This document shows, piece by piece, positions 58,957-64,000 of a stretch of DNA of 64,000 nucleotides. Source of the DNA: Lachnospiraceae bacterium (GTDB lineage Bacteria; Bacillota; Clostridia; Lachnospirales; Lachnospiraceae); assembly GCA_024403515.1 (NCBI GenBank), contig JAKSRS010000002.1, forward strand, positions 22,388 to 86,387. Reading direction: 5' to 3'. How positions within the stretch are numbered: the stretch's first letter is position 1; each line of letters starts with the position of its first letter. The position numbers and the translations under genes were made by a program. The notes beneath the pieces are model-generated. The model ran no database searches. It was not told the DNA's origin and saw only the letters and a program-made list of their open reading frames with translations.

Positions 58957-59622
58957 TTATATATGGAACCTTCTATATAACTCTTCTTTAGTTCTTGAGC
59001 CACCAAGGATAAAGGTTGATGCAAAAAGAAACAAAGAGATTCCGATAGCCAGTATTGATACCAAAGGCTGTGTGACCTGCTTGGCCCAGAATAAGGGAAT
59101 CGCAGCGAGGCTTATGATTACCAGTAAAAGTTGAGAGGTAACGTAACTTTGCCAGCCGTGAGGATGACAAAGAATGAGAATAAAAATGATAAGGTTTGCT
59201 GATATAATAAGTGCGGGCTGGACATAATTTAGGGACCAACCGTAATCTCCAAGCATTTTATCCATAATATCTAACATTGTGATTAGCGCTATCATCGCAA
59301 GAACAATATCAGCTCCGTAGCTTGAACGGGTTCCGTTAACGAAATAGTAAAGTGTAAGATATACACAAGCCATAAGGCATCCGGGAATAACTGACCATAA
59401 AAACTGCGGATACAAGGATAGATTTAAATATATCAGTAAGGCTTCTACGACAAGTGCCAGCATGAGGTAGATTCGGCTGGCAAACTGAAGTTTTCTTCTT
59501 CTTTTAACTATATTGGGGTATTTCATTACCCCTTCGCCTTCTTTTTCAAGAACGCATCTGCAAAGTGGACAGATAGAAGTTTCATCTGTCACGGTAATCT
59601 TGCAATTATTACATTTACCCAT
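58957..59622 (-). CDS. Multi-TM protein with N-terminal Zn ribbon (DUF6320-like)
   Basis: MGKCNNC...CPLC, then about 6 TMs; ATG overlaps the upstream stop (ATGGGTAA) with a GGAG RBS. Confidence 0.75.
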   Translation of the reverse strand: MGKCNNCKITVTDETSICPLCRCVLEKEGEGVMKYPNIVKRRRKLQFASRIYLMLALVVEALLIYLNLSLYPQFLWSVIPGCLMACVYLTLYYFVNGTRSSYGADIVLAMIALITMLDIMDKMLGDYGWSLNYVQPALIISANLIIFILILCHPHGWQSYVTSQLLLVIISLAAIPLFWAKQVTQPLVSILAIGISLFLFASTFILGGSRTKEELYRRFHI

Positions 59623-60952
59623 AATATACTCCATTTGTTTCAAGAGAAATATCGATTCCGTCGGAAGTTAACTGCTTTACAAAACACTGCTGAATGTCGA
59701 CATTTCTAAGAATAGAACTGAATGTAACATTCATAGTATCATCGTAAGAGCATATAGTTGCTTTTATGTACTGGCCCTTTGACATGGAAAGGATGGCAAA
59801 GAAGTCACTTACATATTTTTTGTATGCTTCATCAACCTTGATATTACCGATGTTTGTCATTGTGGTTGAATTTGCAAGGGCTGATCTTGAATAAACAATT
59901 CTCATCGCGATATTTTTAAGGAACATTGGCATGCTCTTTAAAAAGACGTTCTTTTGATTAGAAACATTATATGAAAAAATTGATTCAAGATGGTCTTTAC
60001 TCATCTGAGCTCTTAAACCTTCGTTGGTCTTAGCAATTATTTCTTCAAAAGTATGATCTTCCTTCCATGTTGAAAATTCGGCTGAAATCATTACGAAGAA
60101 ATTTTTAACCGTAACAGATTCAAAGTAAGAGCGTAAATTCACCGGCACAGCAATACGGATGTCTTTTTTGGATAAAGCTCCGTGAAGGCAGGCACGGTAA
60201 ATACTGTACATGTATACGCCTACAAGGTATTCGTTGATACTTGAACCGTATTTGTGAGCAGCAGCTTTTAACTGCGCAAGATTCATCTTGCAGGTAATAA
60301 CGCCTAACTGGTTATCTCTTAGCTTTTCACCCTTAATTGTATAAGCCTTGCTGGTAACGTATTTGGGTTTGGAGCTTTTCTTGTAGTTTCTAAGGAAACT
60401 GTCTTCCTGATTCATACTGGTTCCGCTCGTAAGGCCTGAACCGGTCACCGCTTCAATTTCAGGATGAGCAAGCCTCAAATAGTGGTACACAAGTTCCTTT
60501 AAGAAGCTGATACCACCCATTCCATCGGCAAGAACGTGGAAAACTTCGATATTGATTCGATTCTTATAATATGAAACTGTAAAAAGATAGTCTCTGTTGA
60601 ATTTAGAATGAATAAAACGACAGGGATAACCGTTTTCGGCACGAACTGCAGGTGCTTTACGGCCATTCTCCTCAAAGTAGTTCCAAAAGAAGCCTTTTCT
60701 AAGACGAACATTAAAAGGCTCATATAGGGGAAGCAGTGTATCGAGTGCTGACTGGAGTAAAACAGGATTTACATCCTCGGTCAAGCTGGCACTGATTCTA
60801 TAGGTGTTACTCATTCTTTCACCTGCGATAACAGGGAAAAGATGAGCGGAGTTGTCGAGTCGCTGCCATCTTAGATATTTAAGTCTGACACTTTCTCCGT
60901 TGCGATTCTTCTGCTTTTTGTTTTTTGACTTAAGTTCTTTATCTTTTTTCAT
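59615..60952 (-). CDS. CoA-dependent acyltransferase (alcohol acetyltransferase/CAT-like fold)
   Basis: LDNSAHLF, FHVLADG (HxxxD), PVNLR..F. Confidence 0.8.
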   Translation of the reverse strand: MKKDKELKSKNKKQKNRNGESVRLKYLRWQRLDNSAHLFPVIAGERMSNTYRISASLTEDVNPVLLQSALDTLLPLYEPFNVRLRKGFFWNYFEENGRKAPAVRAENGYPCRFIHSKFNRDYLFTVSYYKNRINIEVFHVLADGMGGISFLKELVYHYLRLAHPEIEAVTGSGLTSGTSMNQEDSFLRNYKKSSKPKYVTSKAYTIKGEKLRDNQLGVITCKMNLAQLKAAAHKYGSSINEYLVGVYMYSIYRACLHGALSKKDIRIAVPVNLRSYFESVTVKNFFVMISAEFSTWKEDHTFEEIIAKTNEGLRAQMSKDHLESIFSYNVSNQKNVFLKSMPMFLKNIAMRIVYSRSALANSTTMTNIGNIKVDEAYKKYVSDFFAILSMSKGQYIKATICSYDDTMNVTFSSILRNVDIQQCFVKQLTSDGIDISLETNGVYYG

Positions 60953-61062
60953 GGTAAATATTTTAACATTTTACCCATATCAAATCAATTAACATAGACG
61001 GATGAGAATTCTTATTATAAAATTAACTTTGGCTTAACATGCCAAGTAAAGAGACGGAGCGA

Positions 61063-62649
61063 ATGATGAAAATAAAACTATTTAAGAATTTCAGGGAAAC
61101 GGCCTGTGTTCTTATATTTTCTTTCTTATTTTTATTTATTAATATAACGACTACTTGTCTTCAAAAATCCGCCCACCTTTCGGGGAAGACGGTCTTAATC
61201 TCTTTGCTTATAAGCATAGTGGCAGGTCTTTTACTTTCAGAATGCCTGCTAAGACTTAAGGGGCTTATAAAAGTAAAGAAATTTGAAGGCTTCAAGGATT
61301 CAGAAAGTGATGCACTTTATTTTCTTTTTGTAGGGCTGATAATATTTGTCCTTTGGATTCCTGTTTTTTTGGCTTTTTATCCCGGCTTCTTTGCATACGA
61401 TGTTATGGCGCAGATTGCCCAGGTTAAAACAGGAGAATATTCAACTCACCACCCGCTTTTACACACCTTAGGCCTTGGTTTTTTCTATGAAACCATTGGC
61501 GGAAAACTTTTAAAAGATTACACGAAGGGTATAGCGCTGGCATCAATATTTCAGATGCTTACCTTTTCTTTTCAGTTATCTTACATACATCTTTTCCTGA
61601 AAAGAGCCAAAACTTCAAAACTTATGCGGGGTATCCTGATTGCCTTTTGCGGCATTTGCCCTTTCTTTTCAATGCTTGCAATCTCCATGACCAAAGATAC
61701 GGTCTTTGCAGGCTTTTTGGGAATGCTTTTAGCTTCGGTAGCGTATTTTGAAATGGATTATGATTATTCGGTTAAAAGTAAGTCAGTCAAAATCCCATTT
61801 ATGCTATCATTTGTTGGAACTGCACTTTTTAGGTCCAATGGAAGAATTGCCGTCTGGGTTTTGACAGTCCTTCTTTTGATAAAATATATAAGTCAAAAGA
61901 AAAAGCATATAGTAATCCTTGGCATAATCTCGGTTTTGATTAGTGAAGCCTTGTTTTGTGGGATTAAGCTTACACTTAAAGCGTCTGCACCATCGCAGAC
62001 TGAGATGCTTTCCATCCCGCTTCAGCAGATGGCTTTTGTATATGAATTAAACTATGATACGCTTTCTTTAGAAGATAAAAATACTATAGAAATGCTGATT
62101 CCGGAGGTTATAAATTACAATAGAATCATAAGTGATCCCATAAAGTTTACTGCGGATTACCTTGATAATAAGGATATCTTCTGGAAGACATATTTAAAAC
62201 TGTTTGCAGGGCATCCGAGACAGTATGTGGAAGCCTTCCTTGAAAACAATTTAGGTTTTCTGTGTATTCTTGATAAAACAAATGCAACGGTTTACGGTAC
62301 AGGCTATGAAAGACGAAGAGGCTTTTTGATGGCCTACACCAGAGATGGCTACGGTGTTGAAGCTAAAAGCCGCCTGAAACCTTTAGAAGATTTGTATTTA
62401 AAGCTTTATTGTGAAAATGATTATCAGAAGAACCTACTGACATTTCTTCCCTGTTCCATGGGACTGTATTTTTGGTTAATTGTTCTTTCTGTATTTTTAA
62501 TGATAGATAAAAAAGCCAAGCGTGCGGCTTCGGTGCTTTTTATTCTTGCACTTGGGGCAACGACCCTTTTGGGCCCCTGTGCTATTATAAGATATATGCT
62601 TCCGTATGTTGTCTGCCTTCCGGTTCTTTGGACAGAGGCATTAAAATGA
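61063..62649 (+). CDS. Polytopic membrane protein (DUF6020-like, probable GT-C fold)
   Basis: YPG...YD..AQ......STHHP.LHT, TKDTVF, RSNG, RY..P; GGAG RBS before ATG 61063. Confidence 0.7.
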   Translation: MMKIKLFKNFRETACVLIFSFLFLFINITTTCLQKSAHLSGKTVLISLLISIVAGLLLSECLLRLKGLIKVKKFEGFKDSESDALYFLFVGLIIFVLWIPVFLAFYPGFFAYDVMAQIAQVKTGEYSTHHPLLHTLGLGFFYETIGGKLLKDYTKGIALASIFQMLTFSFQLSYIHLFLKRAKTSKLMRGILIAFCGICPFFSMLAISMTKDTVFAGFLGMLLASVAYFEMDYDYSVKSKSVKIPFMLSFVGTALFRSNGRIAVWVLTVLLLIKYISQKKKHIVILGIISVLISEALFCGIKLTLKASAPSQTEMLSIPLQQMAFVYELNYDTLSLEDKNTIEMLIPEVINYNRIISDPIKFTADYLDNKDIFWKTYLKLFAGHPRQYVEAFLENNLGFLCILDKTNATVYGTGYERRRGFLMAYTRDGYGVEAKSRLKPLEDLYLKLYCENDYQKNLLTFLPCSMGLYFWLIVLSVFLMIDKKAKRAASVLFILALGATTLLGPCAIIRYMLPYVVCLPVLWTEALK

Positions 62650-62671
62650 TACGGATATTTAGTGGAGTTTT

Positions 62672-64000
62672 ATGAAAGACGTTTTTATTTCTTTTTCATC
62701 CCAAAACATGGATGAGGCAGTACGAATATGTGACTTTCTTGAAAGTAGTTTATATTCTTGCTTTCTTGCATCAAGAGACATTACTCCCGGGGCGGAGTAT
62801 GCATCGCAACTAGTCGAGCAGTTAAGTGGCGCAAAGTGTCTTGTACTGCTTTTATCAGTTGCGGCCAACGAGTCGCCTCATGTGTTGCGCGAAATTGAAT
62901 ACTGTGTAAGCCACCGTATTCCCATAATTGTTTATCCTCTCGAGGAAGTTAAACTGAGTAAGTCTTTGGAGTACTTTCTTATGACTCACCAGTGGCTTTC
63001 AATGGATTCAAATAAGGATGAAAGACTTATAGAAAGTCTTGAGAGACTTTTTTGTGCGGAAAATAAGGCTTCAGGCGAAAACTCGAATGATACAAATGCT
63101 AAAAGCCCTGTGGAAAGCGTTTCGGTTTCATTAACTGATGACGAAGGTGCTAAAGATAAAAGCTTCTACGACGAGATGATTCGAAATACCAAGAAAGCTT
63201 ACGGCAAGGCCTTTCTTCTTATGATACTGGTGGTCATCCTTCTTTTTGGGGCAATGTTTTATAGGTACATTCTTCCTGATATTAAAAATTCAGGCGTAGC
63301 TTCCACAAACGATTCCGCCGTTACGTCAGGGACTGATAATTTAGCGGTAAAAGAAGTTAAACTTTCCGATACAATCACTTTCGGTCGATATAATGACGAG
63401 GATATCGATTGGAGAGTAATTCACATAAACGACGACGGCTCGGCAGTGCTGCTTTCATCGCAGATTCTTACAATTAAGGCCTTTGACACTGCTGAAGGCG
63501 GTAAGTACAACGACTACGATGGTGTCGACTACTGGTCATACGAAAATCACATAATAGACGATCCCGCCATTCGTATAATGGCAAGGGGCAACAATGACTG
63601 GAGCCTTTCCAATATAAGAACCTGGCTAAACAGCGACAAAGAGGTGGTTGAATACAATGACCAGGCTCCAACCAAATCCGCAAGCTGTGTCGGTGAAAAC
63701 TTCTACAGTAACGAACCGGGCTTTTTATTTGCTTTTACAGATGGGGAAAAAGAAGCAATTCTGGTTACTCATAATGAAACTATAGGAAACTGCTTTTCAA
63801 ATGATGGAAAGGGCGGTAGTGTCCTTAGCGATGATTTGGTGTATCTTTTAAGTGAAAAAGAACTTTCCTACTTAAAGGATGCAGGTATTTCAATATATGC
63901 TTCAGTAACGGATAAGGCGGCTTTGGCCGATACATCGGGCTCTGTTAAGTCATTTAATGATATACACGGAATCAGTAATTACTACTGGTGGCTAAGAGAT
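62672..64000 (+). CDS. TIR-domain, single-TM, extracellular DUF6273-like domain protein, 3'-partial (absent from the ORF track)
   Basis: Hand translation: MKDVFISFSS...RDITPGAEYA...SPHVLREIEY (TIR); TM FLLMILVVILLFGAMF at about 63212-63260; then ITFGRY....IDWRV..., W..SNIRTWLN, VYLLS..E, YWWLR. Open to the window end. Confidence 0.85.
   Translation, partial: MKDVFISFSSQNMDEAVRICDFLESSLYSCFLASRDITPGAEYASQLVEQLSGAKCLVLLLSVAANESPHVLREIEYCVSHRIPIIVYPLEEVKLSKSLEYFLMTHQWLSMDSNKDERLIESLERLFCAENKASGENSNDTNAKSPVESVSVSLTDDEGAKDKSFYDEMIRNTKKAYGKAFLLMILVVILLFGAMFYRYILPDIKNSGVASTNDSAVTSGTDNLAVKEVKLSDTITFGRYNDEDIDWRVIHINDDGSAVLLSSQILTIKAFDTAEGGKYNDYDGVDYWSYENHIIDDPAIRIMARGNNDWSLSNIRTWLNSDKEVVEYNDQAPTKSASCVGENFYSNEPGFLFAFTDGEKEAILVTHNETIGNCFSNDGKGGSVLSDDLVYLLSEKELSYLKDAGISIYASVTDKAALADTSGSVKSFNDIHGISNYYWWLRD

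Follow-up and report, generated by a model that had tools for sequence, protein, structure and literature searches.

Enzymatic TIR proteins, known from SARM1, AbTir, TIR-STING and TIR-SAVED, are turned on by self-association, and their conserved glutamate is needed for NADase activity but is not sufficient for it. To our knowledge, the characterised bacterial TIR enzymes all respond to intracellular cues. In animals, the Toll-like receptors are type I membrane proteins with amino-terminal LRRs and a carboxyl-terminal TIR that recruits adaptors. In phage receptor-binding proteins, DUF6273 has been described as adopting a C-type-lectin-like fold and can be a target of DGRs (PMC10743442), and a C-type-lectin-like core was also described by the authors of the work on the N-terminal domain of the IgA peptidase IgAse (PMC12237041). 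Sensors with a C-type-lectin fold that are diversified by DGRs belong to multi-gene systems of Chromatiales and cyanobacteria, mostly cytoplasmic, which combine STAND or MoxR-vWA proteins and a DGR with TIR or peptidase effectors (PMC10907252). Neither a TIR-TM-DUF6273 architecture nor a TIR-DHH module was found described in literature searches on DUF6273, on membrane-spanning or extracellular bacterial TIRs, and on TIR-DHH pairs.

The gene analysed here codes for a protein in which a TIR and a DUF6273 domain are joined through a transmembrane segment. It lies at the end of the window, that is, of the whole 64,000-nt stretch of Lachnospiraceae DNA that was analysed. The features of the locus are the following.

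61039..62649, + strand: upstream gene of a polytopic DUF6020 membrane protein of 536 aa (Pfam)
62662..62667, + strand: Shine-Dalgarno-like GTGGAG, 4 nt 5' of the ATG (direct sequence reading)
62672..64000, + strand: TIR-TM-DUF6273 gene, running on over nt 1-150 past the window end; contig C44:85059-86537 (ORF read)
62672..63076, + strand: predicted cytoplasmic TIR domain, residues 1-135 (Pfam, AF2, Foldseek)
62891..62893, + strand: codon GAA of E74, the catalytic-position glutamate of NADase-type TIRs, in the motif S68-P-H70-V-L-R73-E74
63077..63202, + strand: S/D/E/N-rich low-complexity linker, predicted cytoplasmic, residues 136-177 (AF2, entropy)
63203..63271, + strand: predicted single transmembrane helix, residues about 178-200, with KKAYGK just before it (Kyte-Doolittle, AF2)
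63272..63340, + strand: predicted extracellular stalk, variable and disordered, residues 201-223 (AF2, entropy)
63341..64000 and 147 nt more past the window, + strand: predicted extracellular DUF6273 C-type-lectin-like domain, residues 224-492 (Pfam, AF2, profile, Foldseek)

The sequence-only reading had reported an ORF that starts at 62672 without a stop inside the window, and had called for its downstream sequence. The window indeed holds 443 codons with no stop before 64000, and the source contig adds 49 codons and a stop, which places the end of the gene 150 nt beyond the window. The complete ORF, read from the ATG at 62672, codes for 492 aa and has no frameshift or internal stop, and this clean closure rules out a pseudogene or an edge frameshift. 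The stop of the upstream DUF6020 gene is spaced by 22 nt from the start of the TIR gene, and a terminator scan found no terminator-like site between them. A second DUF6020 paralogue (545 aa, 29% identical) starts 27 nt past the stop of the TIR gene, outside the window. Since no DUF6020 gene was found by tblastn beside the homologues in the long-flank loci L003, L005, L006, L027 and L028, the flanking pair is considered specific to the source genome and was rejected as a conserved partner. The rebuilding of an insertion event from relatives of the genus came to a dead end, the sole close DUF6020 orthologue (G170) not being syntenic.

Residues 4-116 match TIR_2 (PF13676; E 3.4e-14, 53.8 bits against a Pfam cut-off of 28) and are modelled by AF2 with a pLDDT of at least 93. 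The profile score above the curated cut-off and the flavodoxin-like fold of the model place the domain in the TIR superfamily. Its structural matches in Foldseek are the TIRs of SARM1, Hydra TRR-2, AbTir and SPARTA (target-normalised TM 0.7-0.8), with E of 1e-5 to 3e-4 for the first three, and the best single-sequence PDB matches of the protein are the TIR domains of MAL/TIRAP. Glutamate E74 is invariant in all 59 aligned relatives (38-63% identical to the query), as are S68, H70, V71 and R73 of the motif SPHVLRE, which reads SPHVLREIEY in the focal protein. E74 falls in the same alignment column as the glutamate that ends the S-x-W-x-x-x-E motif in the TIR-STING chain 6wt6, at a position where MAL carries Gln; His (H70) stands in place of the usual Trp of this motif, at position -4 from the Glu. 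The active-site glutamate of catalytic TIRs is therefore present, and the domain is a candidate NADase. Because the block 61-110 is the most conserved part of the whole protein (column entropy in the family alignment) and the SPHVLRE residues are invariant, catalysis appears more plausible than a decaying domain. The amino-terminal TIR with an intact catalytic glutamate position, as proposed from the sequence, is thereby borne out.

The linker that follows is S/D/E/N-rich and predicted to be disordered over residues 131-165, with pLDDT <50 at residues 138-161, and it varies in length and sequence across the family (column entropy of ~2.9 bits vs 1.2 in the TIR). It leads to the sole strongly hydrophobic stretch outside the TIR core, with a Kyte-Doolittle peak of 2.5, in a region modelled by AF2 as a helix at residues 163-205. 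The S/D/E-rich linker and the single TM helix that had been recognized in the sequence thus agree with disorder prediction and hydropathy. Exactly one TM segment is found in 58 of the 59 relatives; K+R are more numerous on its amino side in 48 of them and the bias is reversed in two. The focal protein has no signal peptide, and DUF6273 is found behind a signal peptide both in the IgA peptidase and in a second protein of the source genome. An N-in/C-out topology is deduced from the absence of a signal peptide, from the positive-inside bias and from the position of DUF6273 behind signal peptides in secreted proteins. As regards architecture and topology, the protein is thus very probably a type II single-pass membrane protein with the TIR inside and DUF6273 outside, the orientation that the sequence-only reading had assigned and that the charge bias (48 vs 2) and the missing signal peptide sustain.

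DUF6273 is recognized at residues 305-487 (Pfam E 4.2e-13, 50 bits vs a cut-off of 23.5). The ectodomain features the conserved motifs AFDxAEGGxYN, RGNNDWSxSNIRTWLNS, YYWWLRD and YGIRPA and, when modelled alone by AF2, reaches a pLDDT of 95.4 and a pTM of 0.92. The only solved structure matched comes from the IgA peptidase of Thomasclavelia ramosa, namely its N-terminal domain (PDB 9QA6), with E 1e-18 for the family profile and, in Foldseek, TMq 0.69 at E 2.7e-14. Foldseek against BFVD also yielded about 20 predicted structures, of phage DUF6273 proteins or of tail-fibre proteins. Domains of this kind serve phage tail proteins and secreted surface proteins in binding. Profile and fold, the latter being similar to solved and modelled DUF6273 domains, hence concur in assigning the ectodomain to DUF6273. 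Foldseek returned no canonical C-type-lectin domain for the ectodomain, and the C-type-lectin-like label of its core is taken from PMC12237041 and PMC10743442. The DUF6273-like ectodomain with a C-type-lectin-like fold of the earlier proposal finds its counterpart in the Pfam match and in the solved IgAse domain. The ectodomain is less conserved than the TIR (1.66 vs 1.23 bits of column entropy). Its core is strongly conserved across the family, and the stretch from WWLRD to YGIRPA is its most variable part between species. Such a conserved core gives no hint of an arms race against the variable proteins of phages.

The gene is patchy and accessory. It is carried by 7 of the 151 genera of its family and by 340 GTDB species, nearly all Lachnospiraceae; in its own genus about 5 of 25 species have it, and identity between species of one genus is 45-54%. 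Several hundred relatives look like surface receptors, with a putative sensing role. The combination of TIR, TM and DUF6273 is retained down to ~30% identity with very different stalk lengths and sometimes with two ectodomains, a persistence that argues for selection on the TIR-DUF6273 pairing. Members of the family abound in Lachnospiraceae of the gut and rumen and may therefore shape phage-host or host-microbe interactions there. The gene is also present in the records of an RNA-run search, which attest presence only, the runs being of unknown type and kept as contigs. Note that the sole full-length match in a phage collection, MT836910, is a mislabelled fragment of a bacterial chromosome, so that a phage-borne copy was discarded.

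The neighbours of the focal gene code for DUF6020 membrane proteins, GntR/ABC proteins and glycoside hydrolases, and the neighbourhoods of its homologues are of housekeeping type and differ in every genome examined. PADLOC found no defence genes near the focal gene, and in none of the more than 10 contexts inspected does a defence island, a mobile element or a known effector occur close by. The TIR itself has weak PADLOC matches to ThsB (E 6e-5), and its neighbours have none; the TIR also matches models of SAVED-TIR and ThcB4 weakly. Thoeris was rejected, no ThsA-type effector (SIR2/SLOG, Macro-TM etc.) adjoining the gene, and so were CBASS and Pycsar, the protein having no SAVED, STING or cNMP-binding domain and no cyclase being nearby. 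The locus also departs from the SPFH-associated membrane TIR cassette (Zn-ribbon/TPR-TIR-TM + SPFH + 4-TM): the TIR starts at residue 3 with no Zn-ribbon or TPR ahead of it, there is no SPFH or 4-TM neighbour, the five Band_7 (SPFH) genes of the source genome are all on other contigs, and the neighbour genes of 80 family loci contained no recurrent SPFH cluster.

When the genes around the TIR gene in these 80 loci were clustered, a single cluster recurred in more than 9 loci. It codes for an uncharacterised DHH/DHHA1 phosphoesterase of 500 aa. In the sister clade its gene is immediately downstream of the TIR gene, on the same strand, in 19 of 68 loci, with TIR-DHH gaps of -19 to +84 nt. In the family tree this adjacency sits in deep branches of one clade. 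Because the focal clade has no DHH neighbour, the inference of a DHH partner is indirect for the focal gene. The source genome has two DHH copies in trans, one behind a second, receptor-like TIR gene of TIR-TM-propeller type, and TIR-TM genes of two further kinds are also followed by this DHH. DHH is found in 6 of 7 TIR-positive genomes vs 24 of 151 overall, a statistic that ignores phylogeny. Where it has no TIR neighbour, the DHH gene also adjoins purine and IMP genes. The DHH/DHHA1 superfamily takes in c-di-AMP and nanoRNA phosphodiesterases and pyrophosphatases. The association offers a concrete two-protein system for reconstitution and suggests that a new enzyme may exist for the turnover of nucleotides made by TIRs.

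The mechanism that we infer for the focal protein, a receptor-like membrane TIR enzyme activated by clustering, is put forward tentatively and at somewhat less than an even chance. At the cell surface the ectodomain would bind a multivalent ligand, most likely one that carries glycans, for instance polymer of the wall, a phage particle or an adjacent cell. Ligand-bound receptors would cluster in the membrane and allow their TIR domains to self-associate, the passage of a clustering signal through a single TM helix being assumed by analogy. By comparison with the defence TIRs, self-association is expected to be required for NAD+ cleavage. The assembled TIRs would then cleave NAD+, either depleting it or producing a nucleotide derived from ADP-ribose. 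The DHH/DHHA1 phosphoesterase, which is translationally coupled in the sister clade, may process or clear this product, and the output would be phage defence or a non-immune surface-sensing pathway. A complete outside-in pathway, in which ligand clusters the receptor, the TIR makes an NAD-derived nucleotide and a dedicated DHH/DHHA1 enzyme processes or clears it, is a more speculative and rather unlikely extension. If true, signalling or immunity across the membrane would here rest on two enzymes, an arrangement without a described bacterial counterpart and convergent in function with Toll-like receptor logic.

An immune subset of the clustering mechanism would be a dedicated anti-phage abortive-infection sensor, detecting adsorbing phage or damage to a guarded receptor and responding by TIR-mediated depletion of NAD+. 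TIR NADases are typical defence effectors, and this role is in line with the weak matches to the ThsB, SAVED-TIR and ThcB4 models, with the patchy occurrence of the gene and its divergence between species of one genus, and with an ectodomain fold common to phage receptor-binding proteins. It is nonetheless doubtful, given contexts devoid of defence islands, mobile elements and known effectors, an ectodomain core that is highly conserved instead of diversifying, and a genome without DGR. That same conservation would fit a non-immune transmembrane signalling enzyme that recognises a conserved glycan, either environmental or its own (polysaccharide of plant or host, own wall polymer), and responds by making an NAD-derived messenger turned over by DHH, a synthase and phosphodiesterase pair like that of c-di-AMP signalling. 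Housekeeping or carbohydrate-related neighbourhoods, the enzymes of the superfamily to which the coupled DHH/DHHA1 belongs and the purine/IMP neighbours of DHH genes away from TIR genes point in this direction. However, neither a receptor nor an effector that would respond to this messenger was identified, the gene is missing from most relatives, which excludes a core pathway, and we know of no bacterial TIR in a non-conflict signalling role; this function is accordingly held to be of low probability.

Catalysis would be dispensable if the TIR served for oligomerisation or as a scaffold, like those of animal TLR, MyD88 and MAL, and the protein were chiefly a TM-anchored surface adhesin or lectin. 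The MAL/TIRAP matches, the H for W replacement in the active-site motif and the occurrence of DUF6273 together with LRR and Flg_new repeats in secreted proteins that resemble adhesins agree with this possibility, which is yet improbable: SPHVLRE and its glutamate are invariant, whereas MAL has Gln there, and an adhesin has no use for a conserved cytoplasmic domain of 135 aa, let alone one better conserved than its ectodomain. It had also been proposed from the sequence that such ectodomains are DGR targets. This is correct for DUF6273 or C-type-lectin-like domains of gut phages (PMC10743442), DGR-diversified C-type-lectin sensors are tied to TIR effectors in multicellular bacteria (PMC10907252), and the variability between species of the WWLRD-YGIRPA stretch would be compatible with it. 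The focal gene itself is a DGR-diversified surface receptor with only a minute probability. The 98%-complete genome gave no match to an RVT_1 reverse transcriptase in a search whose positive controls matched, and when the whole gene was compared with the genome by low-stringency blastn, no template repeat turned up for any part of it. Contigs from four gut metagenomes show scattered SNPs only, with no hypervariable or adenine-biased patch. The neighbours that Pfam annotates around three homologues include no reverse transcriptase, and DHH alone recurs in the 80 family loci. A DGR variable protein was consequently rejected for the source genome.

Returning to the clustering-activated membrane enzyme, its relation to described systems can be delimited domain by domain. 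The focal TIR shares its fold and catalytic-position glutamate with Thoeris ThsB, TIR-STING and TIR-SAVED of CBASS, PycTIR, SPARTA TIR-APAZ and AbTir, and, as in TIR-STING and TIR-SAVED, it is found in one polypeptide with a sensor module. Defence TIRs are cytoplasmic and sense intracellular nucleotides, nucleic acids or phage proteins, whereas the candidate sensor of the focal protein is predicted outside the membrane. Unlike in those systems, a cyclase, a ThsA-type effector, an Argonaute or SAVED/STING is neither present nor adjacent. The N-terminal domain of T. ramosa IgAse is likewise an extracellular DUF6273 with a C-type-lectin-like core from a gut-dwelling Bacillota species, but it is joined to an M64 metallopeptidase, whose cleavage of IgA does not require it (PMC12237041, PMC12402451). 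Its Zn ligands D78, H90 and C126 are not all kept in the focal family, which by alignment reading has D272, a non-His residue and D330. DUF6273 is widespread, the IgA peptidase included, and its ligand, once found, would be useful beyond the focal gene. The phage DUF6273 receptor-binding proteins named tentaclins (PMC10743442) have the same domain family, fold and surface-exposed binding role. They are tail components often hypermutated by DGRs, while the focal protein is chromosomal, TIR-linked and without DGR. With the DGR-diversified antigen sensors (PMC10907252), some of which are predicted periplasmic, it shares the concept of a C-type-lectin-fold sensor with a TIR output. It differs from them in being coded by a single gene of gut Lachnospiraceae, with neither NTPase nor DGR.

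The parallel with Toll-like receptors drawn by the sequence-only reading holds for the single-pass layout with a cytoplasmic TIR; it does not extend to the orientation, which is inverted, nor to the ectodomain, which is not LRR. Toll-like and IL-1 receptors also present an extracellular binding domain and a presumed ligand-induced clustering. The focal protein is type II with an amino-terminal TIR, its ectodomain is DUF6273 with no LRRs or Ig, and no adaptor proteins are known for it. Its TIR, which retains the catalytic Glu, is for that reason nearer to SARM1 than to a scaffold. The resemblance to Toll-like receptors is thus only an analogy of layout and not homology of the whole protein. If a TIR is truly wired across the membrane in these bacteria, surface events such as phage adsorption, neighbour contact or encounter with host or dietary glycans would be coupled directly to NAD+-based signalling or cell death, and the family would be a prokaryotic equivalent of the way in which receptors work in the innate immunity of animals.

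The ORF that leaves the window without a stop codon is a real gene. It begins with an ATG at position 62672, preceded four bases upstream by the Shine-Dalgarno-like sequence GTGGAG, and stays open for 443 residues up to the window end. The window corresponds to C44:22388-86387 of the source contig (C44). Beyond this edge the same frame adds 49 codons before a stop at C44:86537, and the complete protein of 492 residues is read without frameshift. The open ORF had been spotted in the sequence-only reading, which had also named a frameshifted pseudogene as a risk; the frame is intact, and the TIR-TM-DUF6273 architecture proposed there is borne out with the following organization:

Residues 4-116: TIR_2 (Pfam E 3.4e-14, above the curated cut-off)
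Residues 305-487: DUF6273 (Pfam E 4.2e-13, above the curated cut-off)
Residues ~178-200: TM segment, a single hydrophobic helix (sequence)
Residues 1-135: TIR domain (AlphaFold2, pLDDT 93 or higher)
Residues 138-161: disordered linker (AlphaFold2)
Residues 163-205: long helix enclosing the TM segment (AlphaFold2)
Residues 206-223: disordered stalk (AlphaFold2)
Residues 224-492: compact alpha/beta ectodomain (AlphaFold2)

The AlphaFold2 model, built from a 59-sequence alignment, is confident (mean pLDDT 89), and the ectodomain modelled separately reaches pLDDT 95.4 and pTM 0.92. The predicted topology is N-in/C-out because the protein has no signal peptide, KKAYGK lies directly N-terminal to the TM helix, the family shows a positive-inside bias and DUF6273 follows signal peptides elsewhere. 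Lysine plus arginine content is higher on the N side of the TM than on the C side in 48 of the 59 relatives (lower in 2, equal in 9), of which 58 have exactly one TM-like segment. DUF6273 sits behind a signal peptide in the IgA peptidase of Thomasclavelia ramosa (PMC12402451, PMC12237041). The sole other DUF6273 protein of the genome, encoded ~20 kb past the window end (C44:106515-108215, + strand), has the layout SP-DUF6273-Flg_new-LRR. Charge bias, single TM and absent signal peptide support the cytoplasmic TIR and extracellular DUF6273 first read from the sequence.

In the family alignment, conservation across the whole protein is highest at residues 61-110, and S68, H70, V71, R73 and E74 (SPHVLRE) are invariant. 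E74 occupies what we take to be the catalytic position, by reference to SARM1 (WVHKE, E642) and plant TIRs (SxWCLxEL). It aligns with the Glu of the S-x-W-x-x-x-E motif in TIR-STING chain 6wt6, consistent with the intact catalytic position noted earlier, while the non-enzymatic MAL TIR has a Gln there. A family-specific oddity is a His instead of Trp at position -4 relative to E74. Foldseek places the domain among the TIRs of SARM1, Hydra TRR-2, AbTir, SPARTA and plant NLRs.

Only one solved structure other than TIRs is matched by the family profile, namely 9qa6, the T. ramosa IgA peptidase N-terminal domain (E 1e-18); Foldseek also recovers it with the ectodomain (E 2.7e-14, TMq 0.69). That domain, named DUF6273 (PMC12402451), is an irregular alpha/beta structure with a C-type-lectin-like core whose closest structure is the Legionella Lcl C-terminal domain, and it is dispensable for IgA cleavage (PMC12237041). 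The fold recurs in about 20 phage proteins of BFVD; the annotation is DUF6273 for many of them and tail-collar fibre for one. DUF6273 is likewise C-type-lectin-like in the phage receptor-binding "tentaclins", which are targets of diversity-generating retroelements (DGRs) (PMC10743442). The lectin-like fold suspected from the sequence is borne out by these correspondences. Members of the TIR-linked family share a strongly conserved ectodomain core (AFDxAEGGxYN, RGNNDWSxSNIRTWLNS, YYWWLRD, YGIRPA) and vary in patches at 361-390, 421-430 and 443-470. At the level of sequence and model, the protein is shown to be of type II: its TIR, with a catalytically competent-looking motif, is inside the cell and its putative C-type-lectin-like binding domain outside.

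The suggestion that such ectodomains are DGR targets holds in general but not for this gene. RVT_1 has no match in the genome (98.4% complete), in a search whose positive controls matched, and the whole gene, compared with the genome by low-stringency blastn, finds itself alone. Locus-bearing contigs of four gut metagenome runs differ by a few dispersed SNPs that form no adenine-biased cluster, and the Pfam-annotated neighbours of three homologues include no reverse transcriptase. The gene is rejected as a DGR target.

At least 440 relatives have the same architecture (word-indexed search, 8,000 candidates scored). The few that bear names are labelled Lachnospiraceae and called merely "TIR domain-containing protein". 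When 50%-identity representatives were searched exhaustively, 169 scored E 1e-30 or better, and most of the matches listed contain both domains. Distant branches (~30-40% identity) retain TIR-TM-DUF6273, with stalks of up to 300 residues and, in some, two DUF6273 domains. A relative is encoded at 340 loci of GTDB species genomes; almost all of the best 80 come from MAGs of Lachnospiraceae living in the gut of humans, mice, horses, deer and goats. The gene is accessory: of 151 genera that sample the bacterial family, 7 have a TIR-family match. Within its own genus roughly 5 of 25 species carry the gene, in copies just 45-54% identical to the focal protein. One locus (L031, MT836910.1), labelled "Bacteriophage sp." in a phage collection, carries ilvN/ilvC-like, methyl-accepting chemotaxis-like, M23 peptidase and cation antiporter genes and is apparently a piece of bacterial chromosome, not phage.

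The focal gene is framed by two DUF6020 genes that are 29% identical, with a further pair of genes at lower coordinates:

58957-60952 (-): genes for DUF6320 and for a 445-aa protein bearing the motif HVLADG
61039-62649 (+): DUF6020 polytopic membrane protein, ending 22 nt before the focal gene
L002:2566-4203 (same strand as the focal gene): DUF6020 paralogue, beginning 27 nt past the focal stop

No terminator-like site lies between the focal gene and the two DUF6020 genes, all three on one strand, and no compositional anomaly was found across them. One DUF6020 protein weakly matches a putative glycosyltransferase family, and the genome has at least four paralogues. The 445-aa protein weakly resembles WS/DGAT acyltransferases and, together with DUF6320, looks like a small two-gene unit. 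Farther out, alongside DUF6320 and the WS/DGAT-like acyltransferase, are genes for GH36/GH27 glycosidases, for esterases and for GH43-CBM6, as well as a GntR-ABC module; PADLOC reports nothing specific around the focal gene. The focal protein has no Zn-ribbon, and no SPFH gene adjoins its own. Five homologous loci with long flanks, three from the same genus, have wholly different, mainly metabolic neighbours, so that DUF6020 is rejected as a conserved partner. The homologue of an Acetatifactor MAG is preceded, at a distance of 15 nt, by a gene for a 680-aa protein without Pfam match (L005:5903-7945, +), which may be a lineage-specific operon partner.

Clustering of neighbour ORFs in the best 80 of the 340 loci (L054-L133) gave one recurrent family, a ~500-aa DHH/DHHA1 phosphoesterase (Pfam) present at 21 loci, with motifs HDNPDADA and DHH intact in the alignment and without NCBIfam equivalog or PADLOC model match. 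Of the 80 loci, 68 extend far enough downstream to judge; in 19 of these, DHH lies directly 3' of the TIR-TM-DUF6273 gene in the same orientation (gaps -19 to +84 nt). Other relevant copies, with one adjoining TIR gene, are:

L031:2891-4414: DHH
L009:2961-4376: DHH
C55:118711-120192: DHH copy 1 of the same genome as the focal gene
C2:61-1584: DHH copy 2 of that genome, 507 aa, 11 nt downstream of a TIR-TM-propeller gene
C2:1596-4610 (-): this TIR-TM-WD40-like propeller gene (locus L053, outside the window)

The C2 propeller protein (~1000 aa) combines an N-terminal TIR (SEWVQKE) and one TM helix (~190-212) with a large beta-propeller that is WD40-like. Its orthologue lies upstream of DHH at one of 20 further DHH loci; another of these loci has a short TIR plus 3-TM gene in that place, and the remainder have housekeeping neighbours. 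DHH therefore follows two kinds of membrane TIR gene besides TIR-TM-DUF6273 (G032, G110). Directly upstream of DHH orthologues from two other genera are related proteins of 640 and 882 aa in which no TIR motif was seen (L174:3007-4929, -; L177:2976-5624, -). Full-length DHH occurs in 24 of 151 genera and is not a core gene; it is present in six of the seven genomes with a TIR-family match, three times on another contig (Fisher p about 6e-5, a value that ignores kinship). Three kinds of membrane TIR gene are translationally coupled to one DHH family, which in our view speaks for enzymatic TIRs and for a DHH that would act on their product or downstream of it. The link of the focal gene to DHH is indirect: in the maximum-likelihood TIR tree, adjacency marks the deep lineages of the larger clade, one derived subclade of which has lost it; the focal protein belongs to a clade of 17 members in which DHH is never adjacent.

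A multivalent ligand could bind the ectodomain and cluster the receptor, which would switch on NAD+ cleavage by the TIR; DHH might then process the product. The clustering steps are drawn by analogy, because the TIRs of SARM1, AbTir, TIR-STING and TIR-SAVED are activated by self-association. The sequence-only reading is supported in part: architecture, topology, catalytic residue and lectin-like fold hold, and its DGR component falls. The bold receptor reading we consider improbable. Patchy distribution and the precedent of other TIRs hint at a role in defence; housekeeping gene contexts and the conserved ectodomain weaken that case, and a non-immune surface-sensing pathway is the alternative.

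Our literature search found no description of a bacterial TIR-TM-ectodomain protein or of a TIR-DHH module, and a 2025 survey of TIR signalling systems lists no TIRs other than cytoplasmic ones whose effectors are separate. Closest among published ideas are the C-type-lectin "antigen sensors" of multicellular bacteria, which are diversified by DGRs and have TIR or peptidase effectors (PMC10907252). Those are, however, multi-gene NTPase systems with DGRs, whereas the gene described here has none. Enzymatic bacterial TIR proteins are already known; the new part is the candidate extracellular sensor.
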